Assembly: GCA_011364975.1 (NCBI GenBank)
Contig: RDOE01000002.1
Span: forward strand, 1 to 64,000
Length of the DNA stretch: 64,000 nucleotides
Direction of reading: 5' to 3'
Source of the DNA: Promethearchaeota archaeon
GTDB lineage: Archaea > Asgardarchaeota > Lokiarchaeia > Sigyniarchaeales > SOKP01
Position numbers and translations under genes: made by a program. Below are positions 9,312 through 43,672 of this stretch, piece by piece. The notes under the pieces were generated by a model. The model was not told the origin of the DNA. It saw only the letters and a list, made by a program, of their open reading frames with translations, and ran no database searches. Position 1 is the first letter of the stretch; the number at the start of each line of letters is the position of its first letter.

Positions 9312-9487
9312 TTTGATAAGTCATCTTGGGTTTAATTTTGAAATTAGAGAGGTTCATATTTAAAATGATAAGATTTAACATTTAAAATATTATATTCTGA
9401 AATAAAAATTATATCATATTAAAGGATCTAATAATCACTAAAAAAATTCTTATAAACGATGCCTATTTCGTTTTGTAGGTAAGATGT

Positions 9488-10471
9488 ATGAAGGAAAGAT
9501 TTAAAGGAAGAAAAAATTACCCGACTGAAGAGATCGACCCCAAAAATTTCTATAAAGATGATAAAGTTAGAGAATTAATACAGAAAAAGGAAGACTTTAA
9601 ATTCAATCAAGAAGATTATTTAAAACTTTATAATTGTGTCCATTGTGGAGAATGTGAAACTGAATTAGAGAGGATTGAACTAAAGCAAAAATTTTTAGAA
9701 GATGGAAACCAAGTGGAAGGCCTTACTGAAATGATAAATTGCTTTGAGAAATATAGAACACCATATCCATCAAATAAAATGCGTATAAGAAAACCAGAAG
9801 AAATTCCTAAAGAATCCGATACCCTTTTTTTTATGGGGTGTCTTTCTACTATACGAATTCCCAGATATACGGAACATGCGCTAGAATATTTATTAAAACA
9901 AAAAGTTGACTTTACTATTTTAGATACAGAAATCTGTTGCGGTTGGCCTTGGTTTGCGAGTGGGTCAAAAAGAGAATTCGAGATTTGTAAAAAAGAAAAT
10001 ATTGAAATTTTTCAAAAATATAATAAGGTAATATGCTTATGTCCTGCATGTTATTTTCTTTTCAACGAATATTATAAACCAGAAATGAAGAATCCCCCAA
10101 ATTTTGTATATATTTCTGATTACTTAAGACCCTCAGAAAAGAAAAAAAAGGGGAAAATTGGAATACAGCATCTTTGTCAATTGAAAAATAGAGGCAGGGA
10201 AGGAGTAGATACATTTGTTAACAGTATATTGGAAAAGAGCGGATATGATGTTAAGAATGTACCTCACTGGTGTTGTGGTGGTGGCTTGGGTTATATGCAT
10301 AGAACCGATATAATTGAAGCGATTGCTCAAAAGAGAATGGAAGATTTTGATGATTCGAATGCTGATTTCGTTACAACCTACTGTCCTTCATGTTGGTGGA
10401 TTTTACAAAGATTCAGTAAGATAAATAAGATTAATCCAAAAGCTAAAGATTTATTCGAGCTACTTTTATAG
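9488..10471 (+). CDS. CCG-domain Fe-S protein (HdrD/GlpC-like), paralog 1
   Basis: CVHCGEC, FMGC, EICCG, CPAC, CCGGG, CPSC. Confidence 0.85.
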   Translation: MKERFKGRKNYPTEEIDPKNFYKDDKVRELIQKKEDFKFNQEDYLKLYNCVHCGECETELERIELKQKFLEDGNQVEGLTEMINCFEKYRTPYPSNKMRIRKPEEIPKESDTLFFMGCLSTIRIPRYTEHALEYLLKQKVDFTILDTEICCGWPWFASGSKREFEICKKENIEIFQKYNKVICLCPACYFLFNEYYKPEMKNPPNFVYISDYLRPSEKKKKGKIGIQHLCQLKNRGREGVDTFVNSILEKSGYDVKNVPHWCCGGGLGYMHRTDIIEAIAQKRMEDFDDSNADFVTTYCPSCWWILQRFSKINKINPKAKDLFELLL

Positions 10472-10480
10472 GTAAAACTC

Positions 10481-11479
10481 ATGAAAGAAGAATACGTATG
10501 TCCTTGTCGCGATATTGATCCCAAGAATTTCCTGGAAAATGAGGAAGTCATAAAACTTTTAGAAACTAAAGAGGAATTTAAATTTACTCAAAAAGATTAC
10601 CTCAAATTGTATAATTGTATTCATTGTAATGATTGTGGGATTTCAGAAGAAAGGTTTATGCTAAAGCAAAAATTTCTTGATGATGGGAATAAAATAGAAG
10701 GCTTAAAGGAAATGATTCAAGTTCTCGAGACATATGGAACCCCATTTAAAATTAATAAAAGCAGGATTAAACCTATTCCAGGTGTTTCAAAACATAGCAG
10801 TACTTTATTATACCTTGGTTGTTTTACAACCGTTAAAACACCTCAATACGGAGTGAATGCGATAAAATATCTTTTAAGTCAAAAGATTAAATTTTGTATC
10901 TTAGAGGAAGAAATATGTTGTGGATATCCTATTTTATGTACTGGATCAATAAATATTTATGAGAAGTTAGTGGATAAAAATCTAAAATTATTTAAGGGAA
11001 GAGGATTTAGCGAGATAATCACAGTATGCCCAAGCTGTTTTATGGTTTTTAAAAAACATTATAGTAAAGAGAATATTAGGATAAGATATTTCACAGAATA
11101 TCTTAAACCTTCAGAAAAGAAAAAATCTGGGAATTTAATCATTCAGCATGCATGTCCTTTAAGAAATGGTGAAATGCCTGGAATTGTAGAATATCTTGAA
11201 AAATTATATAAGGAAAGTGGATATAATGTTATAGATAAAATTCCTACACGTTGTTGTGGATTTGGTGTTGGACATCAATTGCGAATTGATATCTCGGAGG
11301 CAATCGCAGTAAAAAGAATGTTAGACTTTAAAGATGAGGGAGGTTTTTTGGAAGATTTGAAAGAAGGAGAAAATTATATTACAAGTTATTGTCCAGATGC
11401 TTATTGGGTTTTAAAAGCATATGGAAGGAAAAAAAAAGTTAAATTTAAAGTTAAGGATATGTGTGATTTGTTGTTATAA
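10481..11479 (+). CDS. CCG-domain Fe-S protein (HdrD/GlpC-like), paralog 2
   Basis: CIHCNDC, YLGC, EICCG, CPSC, CCGFG; collinear with the upstream paralog. Confidence 0.85.
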   Translation: MKEEYVCPCRDIDPKNFLENEEVIKLLETKEEFKFTQKDYLKLYNCIHCNDCGISEERFMLKQKFLDDGNKIEGLKEMIQVLETYGTPFKINKSRIKPIPGVSKHSSTLLYLGCFTTVKTPQYGVNAIKYLLSQKIKFCILEEEICCGYPILCTGSINIYEKLVDKNLKLFKGRGFSEIITVCPSCFMVFKKHYSKENIRIRYFTEYLKPSEKKKSGNLIIQHACPLRNGEMPGIVEYLEKLYKESGYNVIDKIPTRCCGFGVGHQLRIDISEAIAVKRMLDFKDEGGFLEDLKEGENYITSYCPDAYWVLKAYGRKKKVKFKVKDMCDLLL

Positions 11480-23525: not shown

Positions 23526-23605
23526 TAAAACTTATTAGATTAGTTTAGTATTTTTAGCATTGATATTAATTTTTCATGCTCACTATTGTATGGAGTGGAT
23601 GTCAA

Positions 23606-24409
23606 TTGCCTAAACAATTTAAACTTAAGCTTGTATTAGGTGGAGCTAAAGGATCAGGTAAGACTTCATTCATTAGTGGAAATTATAAAGAAGATACACC
23701 AATCGGTGTTTCATTCGAATCAATTGAATGTTATGCAAATCAGGGAGATTTGTATAAATTTGTAATATGGGATCTGAAAGATAAACCAAGATTTGAATTT
23801 CTATTTCCTCTTTTTTGTCGTGGTGCATGTGCTGGGCTTCTATGTTTTGATATTAATGATCAACAATCATTTTATGATTTAAAAAGATGGATAAAGTTAT
23901 TGAGAGATGTAGTTGTTGACATTCCGATAATAATAATAGGTACTAAATTAGATTTAGGTAAAGAAAAAGTTAGTGATGAAGAAATTGATGAATTATTAGT
24001 AAGTGAAAATCTTGAAGATGTTTTTTTTGTCTCTCGTTTCAACCTCCCCGAAAAAAGAGAAGAAATTTTTAAACGAATTGTACAAATCATCGATAAGGAT
24101 TATTATATACGTGAATTTTATATTCCAAATTATATAGATGATCAAGAATTTAAAAATTTAGAACATTTATTCGATCACTGTCCTATATGTAAAAAGAAGA
24201 ACCATGGAAGTGGAGAATTGAGAAATATATTCTTTAATAGAAATAATCCTTTTACAATGAGATTTAGAGAGAGTTTATTAAGACTAATAGATAACATTGA
24301 TATTCTGAACATTGCCTATCCTAATAAAATATCATTAGGAATTCCTTGTTGTGATTGCTATAAAAAGATCTTTAATGAAAATCCAAGATCTTTAATCAAT
24401 AATCCCTGA
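23606..24409 (+). CDS. Rab-like small GTPase with a C-terminal Cys4 (Zn-binding) extension
   Basis: GGAKGSGKTS (G1), IGVSF, IWDLKD (altered G3), FCRGA, GTKLD (G4), then CPIC...CCDC. TTG start at 23606 is likely (ATG 23576 possible). Confidence 0.82.
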   Translation: MPKQFKLKLVLGGAKGSGKTSFISGNYKEDTPIGVSFESIECYANQGDLYKFVIWDLKDKPRFEFLFPLFCRGACAGLLCFDINDQQSFYDLKRWIKLLRDVVVDIPIIIIGTKLDLGKEKVSDEEIDELLVSENLEDVFFVSRFNLPEKREEIFKRIVQIIDKDYYIREFYIPNYIDDQEFKNLEHLFDHCPICKKKNHGSGELRNIFFNRNNPFTMRFRESLLRLIDNIDILNIAYPNKISLGIPCCDCYKKIFNENPRSLINNP

Positions 24410-30441: not shown

Positions 30442-31596
30442 TTAAAATGAAGTTAAATTTGATTGAGGAAATTGAGATTCTTCCCCTGCAGCTTGAACAT
30501 AGGGGGAGATTGGTCCTCGTCCTAGAGCCATAATTCGAATTTTTGATCCTAACATCGGATTTAGAGCAGTCCCAAATTTTAGGGTTGCATCTTCAGGGAT
30601 TTCATTTGAAATCGCAGATACAATCTTATCGATCTTTGATAAAGAAAGTTGATGATCTCCTGTAACAGAAATAATGCATCGATCTACGTTATCGGTATTT
30701 AATTCTAAAAGGGGATTATGGAGAGCCAGTCTAGCCTTTCTGATTAAATCCTTCTCTTCTCCCAAGGATTCCGTAATCCCTATCAATCCTGAGGGATATT
30801 CTCCCTTTTTTTCAAGAACTTTTCTAACATCAGCATAATCGATATTGATTAAACCACAGTTATTGATAAGATTGATAATTTCATTGATACTTCTAATGAG
30901 AACTTCATCCATTATTTTAAAACCAGTTAAAATTGGCATCTTTTGATTAAATCGAAGTAAATTATCATTGGGTATTGGTATTAAAGTATCGGTATAGTTT
31001 AAAAGATCTTTTAAGCCTCTCTGGGCTCTTAAAATTCGCTCTTTACCCTCAGAAGTGAACGGGATTGAGCAGAAGCTTACTACTGTTGCATCGTTTTTCT
31101 TAGCTTCTCTTGCTACTATTGGAGCGGCCCCTGTTCCCGTACCTCCACCTAAACCAAATGTTAAAAATACAACATCAGCATTCAGAACTTGAGCTAATCT
31201 TTCCACATCCTCTTCTGCTGCATTTTTACCCACATCAGGATCATTTCCAGACCCTAATCCGCTGCAAGTTTCCTTTCCAATTAATACTTTCTGTTTTGCG
31301 TTTGAGTAATATAAATCATGAGCATCTGTATTAATATTGAGAGTTTCAATGAATTTAGAACCTAAATCTTGCATTCTTGAGATGGTATTATTACCCGCCC
31401 CTCCAATACCTACCACTAGGGACTTAATCTTTAAGACTTTAAGTAAGTCAGCTAAGTATTTATCACTATCCAAATTTGTAGATCCTTTATCATTTAAATT
31501 TTGACGGGCAATTTCTTGAAATCTTGACCTCACAGACATTCTTGATTTGGCTATTTCGGTTAAATTAAGCTCATCCTCAGTCATAATTTTATCCAT
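30442..31596 (-). CDS. ftsZ: Cell division protein FtsZ
   Basis: VVGIGGAGNN, NTDA, GLGSG, GLGGGTGTGAAP, PFTSEG, T7 loop INIDYADV. Start likely ATG 31596 or 31584. Confidence 0.93.
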   Translation of the reverse strand: MDKIMTEDELNLTEIAKSRMSVRSRFQEIARQNLNDKGSTNLDSDKYLADLLKVLKIKSLVVGIGGAGNNTISRMQDLGSKFIETLNINTDAHDLYYSNAKQKVLIGKETCSGLGSGNDPDVGKNAAEEDVERLAQVLNADVVFLTFGLGGGTGTGAAPIVAREAKKNDATVVSFCSIPFTSEGKERILRAQRGLKDLLNYTDTLIPIPNDNLLRFNQKMPILTGFKIMDEVLIRSINEIINLINNCGLINIDYADVRKVLEKKGEYPSGLIGITESLGEEKDLIRKARLALHNPLLELNTDNVDRCIISVTGDHQLSLSKIDKIVSAISNEIPEDATLKFGTALNPMLGSKIRIMALGRGPISPYVQAAGEESQFPQSNLTSF

Positions 31597-31936
31597 AAAG
31601 TAGAAGTAATTCTTATATAATACGAGTATTATATCCAAATAATATAGGATAGTAATATGCATGTAATATCGCTCTTAAAATTAAATGCAACTAGTGCTAT
31701 GGAGATAACATATTTTTTCAAATATTATAAGGAAAATATCTCATTAGTATTATAATAACATATATGTCAATTTGAGAGCTATTAGCAATAGTAGATAAAT
31801 CCCATTTAGGTTATTAGATACTTCGAACCCCATGATATTTAGCTCTAATTATTCGTGGGAAAAAAATGATTGGTTCTAAAGTGAATAAATTTATAAGATT
31901 ATATTTTCACTTGTATTATGTTAGGGGTTTAAAGAA

Positions 31937-37517: not shown

Positions 37518-38339
37518 TTAGCTTTTTCCATTAATTTTTTTTCTGGTAGGAATTAGAGCTAATTCATCATCATCTTCAATATTGTAGTCAATAATTTTTA
37601 AATCATCATCTAACAAGATTCCTCCAGAGGAAATTAGAAAACCATCTGGATTATAATCAAATAAAACACCTATTTTCTGTTTGATTATATTTATCAATTC
37701 CGATGTATCAATTATCATTATTTTCGTTTTCTCACCAGGTTCAATTAATGATCGAACATAAACACGTATTTTCTCATCAATTTCAACAATTCTTTTTGGT
37801 GGGGTATAATTTATAGGATCGTCTGTGACACTTCTGTTTTTTATCATAGTTTCAATTAGTTGAATTCTCTCATCAGGATCGAAGTATAATAATTCTCTAA
37901 TGAAAAAAATTTTATCCATTTTTGAAAGTCCCAATAGGTTTATTTTCTCTAAATCTTCTTTTTTAAATACAGAAAAGATATAGTCATTAATTTTTGGAAT
38001 ATCTTCAAATGATTCATTTGAATCAGCATAACTATCAATTAAAGGATTTGCCTCAAAGTAGTCTTCAATAAATTGATTAGCTAGATTTTTTAATGATTTC
38101 TTTTGAGGTTGATATTTTTGTTGAGGTAGCGCTTTTTTCTTTCCTAAAAACTTATATGAGCTCTCTTTTGACTGAATAATGGTATAAGCAGTACTAGTAG
38201 ATAATACAGCTACACTACTAATAGTTAAAAAGAGATATAAAGGAATACTCTCTACCCTCGAAAGGAACAATATTATATAAATACAAGTTACAACAATGTA
38301 GAGAGTTATTAAACCAAATGCTCTATTTTTATTTCTCAT
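37518..38339 (-). CDS. Membrane-anchored protein (2 N-terminal TM) with a C-terminal Ubl domain
   Basis: Two TM helices. C-terminal RSLIEPGEK...IKQKIGVLF...ISSGG...DYNIEDDDELALIP matches the neighbouring Ubls but lacks ASTAG. Confidence 0.8.
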   Translation of the reverse strand: MRNKNRAFGLITLYIVVTCIYIILFLSRVESIPLYLFLTISSVAVLSTSTAYTIIQSKESSYKFLGKKKALPQQKYQPQKKSLKNLANQFIEDYFEANPLIDSYADSNESFEDIPKINDYIFSVFKKEDLEKINLLGLSKMDKIFFIRELLYFDPDERIQLIETMIKNRSVTDDPINYTPPKRIVEIDEKIRVYVRSLIEPGEKTKIMIIDTSELINIIKQKIGVLFDYNPDGFLISSGGILLDDDLKIIDYNIEDDDELALIPTRKKINGKS

Positions 38340-38420: not shown

Positions 38421-39092
38421 CTACTCACCCACAATAGAGTTCATTATTTTTGTATATTTCTCAGTATCTAATCTAAATAATATTCTTTTATTATCTTTTT
38501 CAACCTTTATAATCCTTAATTTATGAAGAATTTTAAGATACTTTTTAATTGTATTGTAATTCTTCTTTAAATTCTTCGCTAATTGGGTAGCTTTTAAGCT
38601 ATTTTCTTCTTTTAACATAAATTCGATTATTTCTTGGATAATTACTTGTTTTAAATAATAAGATAACTCGTCGTATTCGGGATTTGACTCATAGTGAAAG
38701 ATTATTCTTTGATTATCAATTTTTTTTGATCTAGTAAATCCAAATTTTTCTAAGCAAGATAAATGCCATAATACTTGATTGCTACCAATATTTATCGCTT
38801 TCATAATTTCATTGATATTGGCAGGTTGTTTCTTGATATAATTATAAATTTCATTTCTGATTGGATGTTCGATAATATTATTTTTCATTAATTTAGTTCC
38901 TGGTATTAGGATTCTTTTTTTAATTAGTTTTTTTATAATTTTTTCAATACTATTTTTATTCAAATTTGGGTTAAATTTCACCCTATTATTTATATAAACA
39001 ACAATATCCTCAATTGAAAAAAATGGCTTCTTTTTTAAATACTCCTTTATTAGATCACAAACAATAGCTTGAAGGGTATCAGAAGAGCTCAT
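38421..39092 (-). CDS. Multi-winged-helix transcriptional regulator (ArsR-like)
   Basis: R.EIYNYI...ANINEI....NIGSNQVLWHL..LE and ATQLAKNLKKNYNTIKKYLKIL. Confidence 0.8.
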   Translation of the reverse strand: MSSSDTLQAIVCDLIKEYLKKKPFFSIEDIVVYINNRVKFNPNLNKNSIEKIIKKLIKKRILIPGTKLMKNNIIEHPIRNEIYNYIKKQPANINEIMKAINIGSNQVLWHLSCLEKFGFTRSKKIDNQRIIFHYESNPEYDELSYYLKQVIIQEIIEFMLKEENSLKATQLAKNLKKNYNTIKKYLKILHKLRIIKVEKDNKRILFRLDTEKYTKIMNSIVGE

Positions 39093-39357: not shown

Positions 39358-39690
39358 ATGAGTTTTGACAACGATTTTGATGAAGAATTAGAGCCTGTTA
39401 AATCTAAAACTCCATCAAGTAAAACACCCACAACAGGTAAAAAGTTGACTTTATACTTTATGTCAACTATTGGTCCTGGTGAAAAGAAAGAGAAATTAAC
39501 AGTGAATGACGCTAACCGTGTAAGTGATATCAAACAAACATTAGGAAATTTATTTGGACTCGATCCTGATGAATTTCACCTTTCATCTGGTGGAGTAACT
39601 ATGGATGAAAGTAATCAACTAAAAGATTATAATGTTAATGATGGCGATGATATCCTTCTGATCCCAGCGAGTACTGCGGGATACTTTTAA
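39358..39690 (+). CDS. Ubiquitin-like (beta-grasp) protein B, ending ASTAG-YF; first gene of the E1-E2-JAMM-RING run
   Basis: RVSDIKQ, LKDYNVNDGDDILLIPASTAGYF; directly upstream of E1. Confidence 0.88.
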   Translation: MSFDNDFDEELEPVKSKTPSSKTPTTGKKLTLYFMSTIGPGEKKEKLTVNDANRVSDIKQTLGNLFGLDPDEFHLSSGGVTMDESNQLKDYNVNDGDDILLIPASTAGYF

Positions 39691-39750: not shown

Positions 39751-39774
39751 TGATTAACATTTAAGGTGATAATA

Positions 39775-40998
39775 TTGGATAAGGATTCAGATTTTTTTGC
39801 AAAAGGAATGTCAGCGGAAGAGAGAGATCTGTATGATCGCCAATTTCGTTTAGAAGGATGGTCTCAGAAATTGGTAAAAAACTCGAGAGTCTTAATAGCA
39901 GGTGTTGGTGGATTAGGTTGTGAAATTGCAAAAAATCTAGCGATGTTAGGAGTAGGTCATTTAGATCTTGTTGATTTAGACATTATTGAGCATTCTAATT
40001 TAAATCGTCAAATTTTATTTACAGGCGCTAAGTTAGGGGCACCAAAAGCAATTGTCGCGGCTCAAAAATTAACCGAGATTAATCCAAATATTGTTGTGAA
40101 AGGATATCATTCTTCTTTAGAACGGTTAGACCCTGCTTTATACTATGCTGCTGATGTTATTATTGGAGGCCTTGATTCAATGAATGCCCGCTTGAATTTA
40201 AATGCTCAGTGTATACGCTTTAGAAAGCCGTTTGTAGATGGTGGAGTATCTGGTTATCATGGGCATATGTATTCGATCTTTCCTTATCAAAATGCTTGTT
40301 ATGAATGTAATCCACTTCCAGTATCGGAAAGTGATGAAATGGCGGCCTGTACTGTAGTAGGGGTTCCTCGAAAACGTATTCATTGTCTTTTTAAAGGAGA
40401 TATGGCCTTTAAAGAAAAATTTGATAGAGATCCAAATCCAAAAAATATAACAGATATTGAATTTATTCAAAAAGTTGCAAATGAATTAGTAAATAAACAT
40501 AATTTCTTACCAGAATATACAATAGATGATATTGTTAAAATCATTAATCGCCACGATCCTGGGATCATCACGATTAATGCGGTAATATCTGCTTTAGAAT
40601 CTCATGAGGCTGTTAAAATATTGCATTGGAAAAAAGGTCATAAGGGTTTAGGACACCCTATTGCGAGTTATGTAATATTTAATGCAATGACAATGAAACT
40701 TTATCACATAGAAAAGAAGAGAAATCCAGAATGTTCTCAATGTGGTAAAAATACAAGGCGTGTGGTCATAAAGATGAGAGCTCAATCACCATGTTTGAAT
40801 ATAATTCGAACATTAAAAAAGAATGGGTTTGAATTAGAGCCTGAATTTGAACCAGTTCTAACCCTGCAAGATTATAATGATATCTTGGTTTTAGATTTAG
40901 AGCAGAGTTTGATTGAGAATGGTTTGAGGAATTACGAATTTTTAACTGTTGCAGGGTTTAAGGGTGGAGAAATTTATGTTACCTTAAAATTAATTTAA
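39775..40998 (+). CDS. Ubiquitin-activating E1-like enzyme (ThiF/UBA family)
   Basis: YDRQ, GVGGLG, DLDIIEHSNLNRQ, CYEC and CSQC Zn pair, catalytic ACTVVGVPRKRIHC (cf. eukaryotic PxCTxxxxP...HC). TTG start after GGTGA. Confidence 0.92.
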   Translation: MDKDSDFFAKGMSAEERDLYDRQFRLEGWSQKLVKNSRVLIAGVGGLGCEIAKNLAMLGVGHLDLVDLDIIEHSNLNRQILFTGAKLGAPKAIVAAQKLTEINPNIVVKGYHSSLERLDPALYYAADVIIGGLDSMNARLNLNAQCIRFRKPFVDGGVSGYHGHMYSIFPYQNACYECNPLPVSESDEMAACTVVGVPRKRIHCLFKGDMAFKEKFDRDPNPKNITDIEFIQKVANELVNKHNFLPEYTIDDIVKIINRHDPGIITINAVISALESHEAVKILHWKKGHKGLGHPIASYVIFNAMTMKLYHIEKKRNPECSQCGKNTRRVVIKMRAQSPCLNIIRTLKKNGFELEPEFEPVLTLQDYNDILVLDLEQSLIENGLRNYEFLTVAGFKGGEIYVTLKLI

Positions 40999-41090: not shown

Positions 41091-41618
41091 ATGAGTATAA
41101 GAAGTAGTCGGATTTCTCAAGATTTTGCAGGATTAAAAAAGTTACTCAAGGATGGTACTATTATTCAATTAAAACCTTTTAATCCAAAAAAGAAAAGCAT
41201 TGATCATTTAGCAATTACGCTCAAAGGACCTAAAAATACAGCATATGCAGGAGGCTTGTTTAAATTGGAGATGAGTTTCCCTGCTCAATATCCTAAGCAA
41301 CCACCATTTGTAAGAATGCACACTCCGATATGGCATCCAAATTTTTGGCCAAAACCAAATGAATATAAGGGACAGAGAAATATTTGTTTAGCATTAGTGG
41401 ATCCTTCTTTAGCAGGTAAAAAAGGAGGATGGAGTCCTTCAAAAACTGCTGTCACCATTGTTCAAGCCATAATTGCTATGTTAAATACCAGTGGTAAATA
41501 TGTAAATCCTACTGATGTGTTTAATAAGAAAGCTGCAATGGAAATGATGAAAGATCCAAAGTTTTTCGATAAAAAGGTTAAAAATTTAGTAAAGAAGTAT
41601 GCAAAGGATAAATGGTGA
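41091..41618 (+). CDS. Ubiquitin-conjugating E2-like enzyme
   Basis: GPKNTAYAGGLF, FPAQYPKQPP, WHPN...ICL, WSPS. Confidence 0.93.
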   Translation: MSIRSSRISQDFAGLKKLLKDGTIIQLKPFNPKKKSIDHLAITLKGPKNTAYAGGLFKLEMSFPAQYPKQPPFVRMHTPIWHPNFWPKPNEYKGQRNICLALVDPSLAGKKGGWSPSKTAVTIVQAIIAMLNTSGKYVNPTDVFNKKAAMEMMKDPKFFDKKVKNLVKKYAKDKW

Positions 41619-41624
41619 ATCTAA

Positions 41625-42446
41625 ATGAATGAAGATGATAAGATTAGTATCTCGATTAAGGAAGCAGTTAAGCAAAAAATTAAAGAGAAAATTAAAAAAG
41701 AATTACTTGAAGAGATATATAATGAACTAAAGTTAGAAGAAGAATTAGAGGAAGAAATAACATTTGAGTTAATAGATACCAAACCGTTAGAACACTCAGA
41801 AAGTATTAAGGAAAAACTCGAACCCATTCCTATGGTGCCAGTAAAAACTACCGCTAATAGTGATAAAATTAAAGCACAAATTGTGATAACTGTTAAAGCT
41901 GTTCTAAAGATCGCAAGTCATTCTTTAAAGTACGCTCACTCTAAAATTCCACGAGAAGATTGGGTTGAAGTGATCGGCTTGTTGGCAGGAAAATACGATA
42001 ACGCAAAGGGAGTGTTATATGTTGAAGATGCTTATCCTATGGGTCATGGCACAGCTGTCTACGCAGAGATTAATGTTGAAAGGAATCGAAAGTCTGGTCA
42101 TGAACGAGCGTATGAAGAAATTATCAAAAAGGGGTTATTCATTTGTGGATGGTATCATTCTCATCCTTCCTATGGTTGTTTTATGTCTAGAGAAGATTTA
42201 GGAACTCAAGCACGGTATCAAAAGTTATGGGATAAAGCTATAGCTTTAGTTATAGATCCATATCAAATTAATGGATTATCATTAGGATTTGAAATATATC
42301 GTGCAAATTTTAAAACTAAAAAATGGTTTTCGGTACCTTTTGACATCAAGGGGTACTTAGACGTAAAAATGTTACCTGAGATATTAGACTTTATGAATCC
42401 AATAATTGAGGGAAGAGCAGCCTATTTAGAATATGATGAAGAATAA
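41625..42446 (+). CDS. JAB1/MPN+ (JAMM) metalloprotease, CSN5/Rpn11-like
   Basis: EVIGLL, GWYHSHPSYGCFMSRED, TQ..YQ, ALVIDP; acidic helical N-terminal extension. Confidence 0.92.
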   Translation: MNEDDKISISIKEAVKQKIKEKIKKELLEEIYNELKLEEELEEEITFELIDTKPLEHSESIKEKLEPIPMVPVKTTANSDKIKAQIVITVKAVLKIASHSLKYAHSKIPREDWVEVIGLLAGKYDNAKGVLYVEDAYPMGHGTAVYAEINVERNRKSGHERAYEEIIKKGLFICGWYHSHPSYGCFMSREDLGTQARYQKLWDKAIALVIDPYQINGLSLGFEIYRANFKTKKWFSVPFDIKGYLDVKMLPEILDFMNPIIEGRAAYLEYDEE

Positions 42447-42475: not shown

Positions 42476-43672
42476 ATGGTAAAAAAGAAGGGAATAGCAA
42501 TAATATTTATTCTATTTCTCCTAATAGGACTTATCCATGGTTTAATTTCAATTTCACTAAATATTTCTTTAACCTGGATATTAATTGGATTGTGGATAAT
42601 AGTTTCCTTAAAAATTATAGAAAATATAAGAAGACATCGCGAGTTTAATTCTCCTCATAATACTGCCTTTTTTGTTGTAATCCCTTTATTCATGGGGATT
42701 TTTTATTCCATTTGGGGGTATTTTACGGGTATTTTTGGAGAAAATCTTATCGAAGGTTCGAATCTTTATTTTAGTGGTTGGAGTCTTATTTTTGGATTTC
42801 CTTATGTAACATATGGTTCCTACTCATTATATCGTTGCTTTAAGAAATATAATGTTATTTATTTTGGGGCAAAATCTATAAAAGCTAAGACTTTTGGATT
42901 TATTTTAGCTTTTGTGGTACTTAGCTTTATTATAACTTATTGGATAATATTTTATTCAATATTTGATTATTTTGAGACAATATTAATACCACTTCATTTG
43001 TCGTTAAATCTTAATCTTTTAATATTATTTATTAGTTCTATTTTAATATTAACTATATTTGGATTTTTTGCTTCACAGAGAACCCTACCTGCATTAACTA
43101 ATGATTATATAGAACAACGAACGAGAAAAATAAATTCTTTAGCGAATGCTTCACCGTCATCTTTGCCCAGAACTCAGAGACGACAAGTAACAAATAGACA
43201 CTCAATCCAAACGCCCTCCAGTAAAACTGAAACTATTGCTTCAAGAACTCGAACTAATTCATCAAGAACTACTCCAACCTCTCAAAGAAAGACTCAAAGG
43301 ACCAAGATAACTTATAAAACGAATTCAACAAGAAAAACCTCTGGAACATCACAAAATCGAGGAAAAAAAATGCGAAATTTAGATATATACAAACCTATAG
43401 CAGCATTACTTTCACCAGAAGATTTTAAATGTATTTTCTGCTTTAAATTACCAAAACTCCCCGAAGATAGAAGTAGAGGTATCATTTTATGCCCAAATTG
43501 TAAATATCCTGCACATGCAGATGAGTTCAAAGATTGGGTAAGAACTTCGAATCTCTGTTCAAGATGCAGTACACCAATTTCCTCTAGCTTCAGAAACAAT
43601 CCTAAAATTATTAGCGTAAAAAATTATATGGTAATTTATAAATACTTTTTAAACAAGAAAAATAAAAAATAG
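42476..43672 (+). CDS. Polytopic membrane protein with a C-terminal RING-like domain (candidate E3 ligase)
   Basis: About 6 TM helices, an S/T/R-rich linker, then CIFC-x16-CPNC-x4-H-x2-E..W..CSRC; last gene of the Ubl run. Confidence 0.75.
   Translation: MVKKKGIAIIFILFLLIGLIHGLISISLNISLTWILIGLWIIVSLKIIENIRRHREFNSPHNTAFFVVIPLFMGIFYSIWGYFTGIFGENLIEGSNLYFSGWSLIFGFPYVTYGSYSLYRCFKKYNVIYFGAKSIKAKTFGFILAFVVLSFIITYWIIFYSIFDYFETILIPLHLSLNLNLLILFISSILILTIFGFFASQRTLPALTNDYIEQRTRKINSLANASPSSLPRTQRRQVTNRHSIQTPSSKTETIASRTRTNSSRTTPTSQRKTQRTKITYKTNSTRKTSGTSQNRGKKMRNLDIYKPIAALLSPEDFKCIFCFKLPKLPEDRSRGIILCPNCKYPAHADEFKDWVRTSNLCSRCSTPISSSFRNNPKIISVKNYMVIYKYFLNKKNKK

Follow-up and report, generated by a model that had tools for sequence, protein, structure and literature searches.

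A predicted membrane-anchored RING protein closing a ubiquitin-like conjugation operon in Lokiarchaeia

Where in the cell would the ubiquitin-like conjugation cascade of Lokiarchaeia act, and which protein would serve as its ligase? RING E3 ligases and archaeal ubiquitin operons are known kinds of system, and reconstitution has been achieved for one archaeal RING E3, a soluble one. The question is raised here by a gene at positions 42476..43672 (+) of a 64,000-nucleotide stretch (positions 1 to 64,000, forward strand, of contig RDOE01000002.1 from a Promethearchaeota archaeon, assembly GCA_011364975.1; G+C ~30%), to which we refer as the window. The predicted layout of its product is a six-helix membrane domain, a basic tether and a C-terminal zinc domain. 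Since the gene stands at the end of a strictly conserved operon for a ubiquitin-like protein, an E1, an E2 and a JAB-type protease, it is best read as a membrane RING E3: its product is probably a RING-type E3 that is anchored in the membrane and serves this operon as ligase. An initial annotation of this DNA had proposed a membrane RING E3 as well, and the RING homology, the predicted cytoplasmic topology and the conserved operon make it the best account of the gene.

The features of the gene are as follows.

42476..43672 (+): membrane RING gene, 398 residues (ATG-started open reading frame (ORF) and its translation)
42476..43090 (+): membrane domain, residues 1-205, six predicted transmembrane helices, N-in/C-in (hydropathy, AlphaFold2 model, positive-inside counts)
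43091..43405 (+): basic Ser/Thr/Arg-rich, Lys-poor tether, residues 206-310 (composition; predicted local distance difference test score (pLDDT) <50)
43421..43579 (+): RING-type zinc domain, residues 316-368 (motif, invariance, profile and fold matches)
43616..43666 (+): C-terminal helix after the RING, residues 381-397 (helix 84-100 of the AlphaFold2 domain model; Y384 97% conserved)

What the initial annotation had described in this ORF was recovered: the hydrophobic N-terminal ~200 residues by translation and hydropathy, the Ser/Thr/Arg-rich linker of ~100 residues by composition, and the zinc motif letter for letter at residues 319-364.

A divergent RING with Glu at the sixth ligand position

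Residues 319-364 read C-x2-C-x16-C-x2-C-x4-H-x2-E-x3-W-x6-C-x2-C (CIFC...CPNC...CSRC), the eight-position spacing of a RING with Cys or His at seven of the eight positions. The metal-ligand positions (ml1 to ml8) are C319, C322, C339, C342, H347, E350, C361 and C364, and they are accompanied by W354. In 46 diverse full-length members of the family, 17-66% identical to the window protein, these nine residues and P307 are all 100% conserved. Within the membrane domain of the same members only F66 (82%) and P109 (89%) reach at least 80%, and there is no conserved polar intramembrane residue across the family. This contrast in conservation suggests that the zinc domain is the conserved functional core, the helices being kept as a fold and not as a site.

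A word-indexed search gave 370 relatives at E<=0.01, from metagenome bins of Lokiarchaeia/Promethearchaeota type; where named, all are 'hypothetical protein'. A profile search of 1.84 billion cluster representatives returned 123 matches at E<=1e-3; some of these are full-length members with identity as low as 17%, and a few are short soluble proteins matched over the zinc domain only. Pfam on the whole protein gave at best DUF4808 (E 0.04) and a zinc ribbon (E 0.088). NCBIfam holds no family for this protein, for the ubiquitin-like modifier of the operon or for the membrane-anchored ubiquitin-like protein encoded nearby, and the only shorter relatives of residues 298-398 that a search brought up were 36 fragments of this family, all lacking a functional name. 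Among the 23 sequencing runs found, 20 DNA runs containing the locus are listed, from 7 studies, and no RNA run containing it.

The relation to RINGs emerged from profiles. The wider profile of the domain (A2, 51 sequences) had as its best match in the PDB the RING-H2 finger of RNF24 (2ep4_A; E 2.4e-4, 23.8 bits, 48 positions). In this alignment ml1, ml2, ml5, the Trp, ml7 and ml8 are in register: H347 falls on ml5, the RING Trp is matched by W354, and C361/C364 fall on ml7/ml8. C342 falls on ml3, Tyr344 on the His of ml4 and E350 on ml6, which is Cys in RNF24. C339 is thereby an extra Cys, and C339 and C342 replace the usual C-x-H. At ml3/ml4 RNF24 has C-x-H and the window protein C-x2-C, with Tyr in place of the His; ml6 of the window protein is Glu. 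In the description given in PMC5654768, srfp, the small RING finger protein of Caldiarchaeum subterraneum, likewise has an extra Cys near ml3/ml4 and its alignment is shifted by two residues.

A second line of evidence comes from soluble archaeal C4-H2-C2 RINGs (L084:1189-1719; P0233, P0236-P0243), which are homologous to the domain and have the same spacing and the same Trp (C-x2-C-x12-15-C-x2-C-x4-H-x2-H-x3-W-x6-C-x2-C). Comparison of A2 with eight of them by hhalign gave a probability of 98.3% (E 2e-14, 69 columns), and they appeared at E 1.5e-8 to 3.6e-4 in the whole-library profile search. The curated cut-off of zf-RING_2 (27.3 bits, full model) is reached by four of nine soluble relatives, at 28.2-31.3 bits, and three divergent membrane members approach that model at E ~0.003. 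The soluble proteins differ from the membrane family in having His at ml6 (8/8), no membrane domain and other N-terminal parts (zinc ribbons). One of them, of 176 residues, is a paralogue in the same genome (contig C38, L084:1189-1719 (+)); it lies amid unrelated metabolic genes and, unlike the gene studied here, does not adjoin ubiquitin-system genes.

Fold comparison points in the same direction. The model of residues 298-398 (mean pLDDT 82.5, no zinc) was compared with the PDB by Foldseek, and 50 of the 50 matches listed were RING/U-box E3s or RING-like zinc domains (IFT-A, GATOR2 and similar complexes); the best E was 0.014 (probability 1.0), with the Prp19 U-box at a root-mean-square deviation (rmsd) of 1.7 A over 63 columns and RNF4 at TM 0.67. 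VIA-align, which works without leaning on Foldseek, gave 50 RING/U-box chains among the 50 matches listed out of 48,161 chains, with Z from 7.9 (3lrq_A, rmsd 4.2, 75 aligned) to 5.0. All 50 matches listed in a second VIA look were RING/U-box or RING-like zinc domains (best Z 8.1, rmsd 4.2, 76 aligned). In VIA-align the C-terminal helix was aligned with flanking helices of 3lrq, Ring1b, Rad18 and TRIM RINGs. The fold evidence carries weight because the match lists are uniform and agree with the sequence evidence. We conclude that the zinc domain is a divergent RING with the ligand set C4-H-E-C2, homologous to RING-H2 fingers; the RNF24 match, the soluble relatives and the uniform fold lists uphold the C-terminal RING assignment made at the outset.

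The Glu that had been pointed out at the sixth ligand position is borne out by the family: of 189 distinct membrane-bearing proteins with the motif, 188 have Glu at ml6 and one has Ala. The Trp described as kept lies four residues past ml6. Counted by locus, ml6 is Glu in 77 of 78 and Ala in L080. This locus, in a bin labelled Helarchaeota, carries the most divergent orthologue among 80 loci (L080:6814-7110 (+), 39% identity; HADAF at ml6), and the fold therefore probably survives without Glu. In the cross-brace ml6 completes site 1 with ml1, ml2 and ml5; the simplest reading is therefore a Cys2-His-Glu zinc site, or else a Cys2-His site completed by water, Glu then lying in the second shell. 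As a near-invariant residue at a zinc-ligand position, this Glu poses a clean structural question for RING biochemistry.

Partial parallels are given in Table 1 of PMC5240574. The spacing is shared by plant RING-C2 (26 of 38 for ml3-x2-ml4, 28 of 38 for ml4-x4-ml5), and RING-D shows that accepted RINGs tolerate an acidic residue, Asp, at either ml5 or ml6. None of the modified plant types listed in that source has a Cys ml4, a His ml5 and a Glu ml6 together; these proteins are eukaryotic and of unrelated architecture.

Several observations weigh against an active RING. No zf-RING_2 match was obtained at E<=1 with the whole protein or with residues 298-398, which fail the curated cut-off. The best RING-type Pfam model on the domain was zf-RING_16 (E 0.12), and the link to RINGs runs through profiles and relatives, not through a direct Pfam match. 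The domain model reached no Foldseek match at E 1e-3, and VIA Z values of at most 8.1 are 'middling' by the tool's own scale. Since ml6 is neither Cys nor His, and is Ala in L080, it is possible that Glu does not ligate the metal or that site 1 is weakened. In 76% of members ml7 is followed by Ser in place of the usual Pro. The residue after ml8 is Ser/Asn, not Arg/Lys, and it is directly after ml8 that the activating Arg/Lys of many RINGs is presumably placed. Such an Arg/Lys is called critical in PMC5654768.

Some of these points would fit a non-catalytic membrane scaffold or receptor, in which the RING-like domain is a zinc-stabilised binding module that tethers the machinery or binds tagged proteins, on the model of the C-terminal zinc domains of IFT-A, GATOR2 and HOPS subunits. 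Besides the non-canonical ml6 and the lack of Arg/Lys past ml8, the narrow profile (A1) had its best PDB match in IFT144, whose C-terminal zinc domain has a similar CPxC-x4 core (E 0.16). WDR19/IFT144 appeared at E 0.07-1 with the wider profile, and IFT-A and GATOR2 chains are among the Foldseek matches listed (8bbg_A, E 0.022; 9lvj_N; 7uhy_B). However, none of these matches is as strong as that of the RNF24 RING-H2, and the operon encodes no other ligase candidate. The surface expected of a ligase is moreover kept: W354 is invariant and a hydrophobic pair between ml1 and ml2 is 71-84% conserved, both being E2-contacting in the tested RINGs described in PMC5654768. One of these is srfp, encoded in a Ub/E1/E2/Rpn11 operon and tested as an E3, in which, according to the same description, I30Q abolishes and W58A impairs ubiquitylation. 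A scaffold seems to us unlikely, and it is the alternative that comes through the evidence best.

The membrane domain and the tether

Kyte-Doolittle windows exceed 1.6 at residues ~1-51, 62-84, 134-166 and 168-202, with a weaker stretch at 95-115. An AlphaFold2 model of the full protein, built on 41 relatives, has long helices at 4-25, 28-53, 63-80, 101-123, 137-165 and 179-197, whose pLDDT in 10-residue blocks is 60-96, mostly 80-96, and a short beta-hairpin (residues 127-136) on the cytoplasmic side. In the 41-sequence alignment, mean Lys+Arg amounts to 2.3 at the N-terminus, 2.7 in loop 2-3, 4.9 in loop 4-5 and 4.8 after helix 6; loops 1-2, 3-4 and 5-6 have only 0-0.1 and are acidic. This distribution argues for an N-in/C-in topology that places the zinc domain in the cytoplasm. 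Computation thus shows six predicted helices that would fix the protein in the cytoplasmic membrane and leave its two ends inside, which is also the outcome of the transmembrane prediction that the initial annotation had proposed as a check.

No sequence match of the membrane domain to any Pfam, NCBIfam or PDB entry was found. Foldseek with the full-length model against the PDB gave nothing at E<=1e-3; ZnT transporters appeared at rmsd ~12-13 A, which is meaningless. A wide VIA search with the full model was headed by a merozoite surface protein (Z 8.8) followed by designed repeats, which reflects generic helical packing; the tool states a noise ceiling of Z ~13 for helical models.

A small membrane ORF follows the membrane-RING gene in two distant Asgard lineages (L089:4921-5466 (-), 181 residues; L090:5021-5632 (-), 203 residues). 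Its similarity to the helical domain of the RING protein is co-linear and weak (hhalign probability 28%, E 6e-4; BLASTP E 0.064). It may be a RING-less paralogue, and the similarity is too weak to claim this.

Between the helices and the zinc domain, the 105 residues of the tether include T19, R14, S14 and K9, and the full-length model has pLDDT <50 over residues 225-328, which predicts disorder. In 187 relatives bearing the motif (a set containing one soluble relative, P0242, that passed the length filter) the tether has a mean length of 98 residues, with S+T 35%, R 17.7%, K 5.7% and D+E 3.6%. The ratio K/(K+R) is 0.24 in the tether; outside the tether these proteins have 0.59, and the long ORFs of the window 0.70. 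Depletion of Lys would spare a ligase from tagging itself, a suggestion drawn from composition.

A helical domain so confidently folded and kept across the whole family could have a function of its own, as a transporter, channel or sensor, and the protein could then be mainly a regulated target or a regulator of the cascade, not a general ligase. The weakly similar stand-alone ORFs of the two distant lineages and the length and Lys-poverty of the tether are compatible with this. Conservation within the domain is, however, limited to F66 and P109, without any conserved polar intramembrane residue, and no transporter family was matched in Pfam, NCBIfam or the structure search. The low conservation fits an anchor or a substrate-binding platform better than a catalytic or transport site, and we rate an independent function of the helices as rather improbable, somewhat below the scaffold.

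The polytopic domain also invites comparison with Hrd1 and gp78, and the protein could be a true homologue of these retrotranslocation ligases, an archaeal channel-ligase of the type used in degradation associated with the endoplasmic reticulum (ER), or ERAD. The domain order is the same, with polytopic helices followed by a cytoplasmic RING, which in Hrd1/gp78 has a cytoplasmic E2 as its partner, and ubiquitylation at a membrane would be the common idea. The weak RING matches of Foldseek include HRD1 RING structures. In the VIA full-model search human HRD1 (9uav_B; Z 6.5, rmsd 4.1, 114 aligned) ranked 12 and yeast Hrd1 (9z0e_C; Z 6.4, rmsd 5.5, 150 aligned) ranked 14. The same Z values are nevertheless reached by dozens of soluble helical repeats and designed proteins that are unrelated, and they lie far under the noise ceiling; no search gave any sequence similarity, including for the membrane domain. 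Hrd1 has eight membrane helices whereas six are predicted here. The ligands are C4-H-E-C2 with a different spacing, not C3H2C3, and the window protein is predicted in a prokaryotic cell membrane, not in the ER. We consider common descent with Hrd1 very improbable.

The initial annotation had warned that homology to Hrd1 was not shown, and the structure search of the membrane domain that it suggested justifies this caution, yielding generic helical matches only and no supported Hrd1 relation. Its description of the architecture as Hrd1/MARCH-like stands for the Hrd1-like domain order and has to be abandoned for MARCH. According to Table 1 of PMC5240574, RING-CH fingers are C4HC3 with ml3-x1-ml4 and ml4-x7-ml5; here the spacings are x2 and x4, ml6 is Glu and the RING is C-terminal to the helices. 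A MARCH-type RING-CH is excluded by the spacing and the domain order.

The operon and its neighbours

Around the membrane RING gene, the following features were recognised.

39358..39690 (+): ubiquitin-like modifier, 110 residues, ending ...STAG then YF (PF00240, 8.6e-7)
39766..40998 (+): E1-like activating enzyme, ThiF family (PF00899, 6.1e-57)
41091..41618 (+): E2 conjugating enzyme, HPN motif, Cys99 (PF00179 (UQ_con), 2.7e-25)
41625..42446 (+): JAB/MPN (Rpn11-like) metalloprotease, 29 nt upstream of the RING gene (PF01398, 6e-14)
37518..38339 (-): membrane-anchored protein, 273 residues, C-terminal ubiquitin-like domain (residues 195-262) with no Gly end (PF00240, 4.4e-6; hydrophobic N-terminus)
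38421..39092 (-): ArsR-type winged-helix regulator between the two units (PF01022, 2.7e-11)

The order on one strand is ubiquitin-like protein, E1, E2, JAB and membrane RING, with gaps of 75, 92, 6 and 29 nt, and the next gene, for a folE2-type GTP cyclohydrolase, is convergent. This arrangement was followed by tblastn in 80 loci from species-level genomes. A JAB gene lies directly upstream of the membrane RING gene in 79 of the 80; E2 is present in 76, E1 in 72 and the ubiquitin-like gene in 68, the misses being loci cut by contig ends. The ArsR-type regulator is syntenic in 59 loci and the membrane-anchored ubiquitin-like orthologue, on the minus strand, in 56. The order also holds at a distance: in four loci from four other Asgard families, with the protein 26-30% identical, JAB followed by membrane RING was found in all four, E2 in all three that reach that far, and E1 and the ubiquitin-like gene in two. 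Of 400 genomes of the phylum, 199 carry a member of the family at E<=1e-5, including 117 of 134 in its own taxonomic family; three other families had 27 of 31, 19 of 22 and 6 of 12 genomes positive, and about ten had none.

The operon, at 58% identity and with full synteny, is also carried by L044 (DATKTW010000176.1), filed under a Nanopelagicaceae bacterium bin; this is probably a mis-binned Asgard contig.

The other components of the cascade keep their characteristic residues. In 20 sequences of the operon E2, W81-H82-P83-N84, C99 and W114/P116/S117 are invariant, so that the HPN motif and the W-S-P-S loop are kept. The modifier ends ...IPASTAG followed by YF; 47 of 68 orthologues stop at Ala-Gly, the rest having 1-4 extra residues, and the ...STAG end is also found in distant Asgard families. 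The C-termini of the orthologues therefore indicate that the mature end is Ala-Gly, not Gly-Gly, and that some genes encode a pro-form. The L089 lineage has two tandem ubiquitin-like genes before E1 (9429-9890 (-) and 10235-10582 (-)), one ending ...STAG and the other ...STAGIYY.

A second E2 is encoded in the genome on contig C132 (L081:1477-1995 (-); 88.5 bits to UQ_con), 36% identical to the operon E2. It stands alone, with unrelated neighbours and no ubiquitin-system genes.

The membrane-anchored ubiquitin-like protein encoded at 37518-38339, divergently placed, is a possible accessory. Such a protein beside a membrane RING recalls the Herp/Usa1-type partners of Hrd1. No ESCRT (endosomal sorting complex), proteasome or Cdc48 genes were found in the rest of the 64-kb window. 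The same window carries a Ras-family small GTPase (23576-24406 (+)) and an FtsZ/tubulin-family gene (30445-31662 (-)), both ordinary for Asgard genomes.

The last alternative for the zinc domain, a PHD-type reader finger, agrees with the spacing ranges quoted in PMC5240574 (ml3-ml4 2-4, ml4-ml5 4-5) and is yet the least credible of all, for the soluble relatives match zf-RING_2 at its curated cut-off, PF00628 gives only E 0.054-0.75 outside or partly over the domain, the Trp lies four residues past ml6 as in the RING-H2 and RING-v fingers of that source, the genomic context is a conjugation operon, and ml6 is Glu against the C4HC3 of PHD. PHD entries are absent among the matches listed in three domain-model fold searches, an absence that we do not use as proof.

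As in the operon of srfp, a RING is encoded here together with ubiquitin-like, E1, E2 and JAB/Rpn11 genes. A second operon RING that has been studied is one from Asgard archaea: a soluble Helarchaeial E3 ubiquitylates UEV-Vps23 in vitro (bioRxiv 10.1101/2023.07.25.550441). The likeness to srfp, as it is described, extends to the conserved Trp and a hydrophobic residue near ml2. As described in these two sources, both srfp and the Helarchaeial E3 are small and soluble and have Cys/His at all ligand positions. The window protein, unlike srfp, has a six-helix membrane domain, a 100-residue tether and Glu at ml6, and it does not belong among the small soluble RINGs.

Proposed function and significance

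If the gene encodes the ligase of the operon, the cascade might proceed as follows. The cross-brace would bind two zinc ions, site 1 being formed by C319, C322, H347 and E350 (carboxylate or water-mediated) and site 2 by C339, C342, C361 and C364. The surface made by I320/F321 and W354 would dock the operon's E2 charged with the ubiquitin-like protein, and the RING, given its reach by the tether, would promote direct transfer to lysines on those proteins that the helical domain holds at or in the membrane. The JAB protease would trim the YF extension of the modifier after ...STAG and remove tags. The purpose of such tagging could be quality control, which is one guess among several, sorting and regulation being others.

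The membrane embedding and the presumed Glu ligand set this protein apart from the known kinds of RING E3. Full-text literature searches turned up no polytopic membrane RING described from the ubiquitin operons of Asgard archaea; the gene might figure among the Asgard clusters that the supplements of PMC5654768 list.

The only ligase candidate of the best-conserved ubiquitin operon of Lokiarchaeia is predicted to be an integral membrane protein, and the membrane would therefore be the place of action. We put forward, tentatively, a wider possibility: that the core ubiquitin-like cascade of Lokiarchaeia and several further Asgard lineages is run at the cell membrane, where membrane proteins would be tagged by a dedicated polytopic RING with a new Cys2-His-Glu site, together with the neighbouring membrane-anchored ubiquitin-like protein, and so marked either for extraction and degradation or for ESCRT-type sorting. 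This would be a prokaryotic counterpart, and possibly a forerunner, of eukaryotic membrane-protein ubiquitylation. A membrane RING gives a concrete, testable entry to the substrates of the Lokiarchaeial ubiquitin operon, and it bears on whether the ubiquitylation of membrane proteins, be it for ERAD-like removal or for ESCRT sorting, predates eukaryotes.

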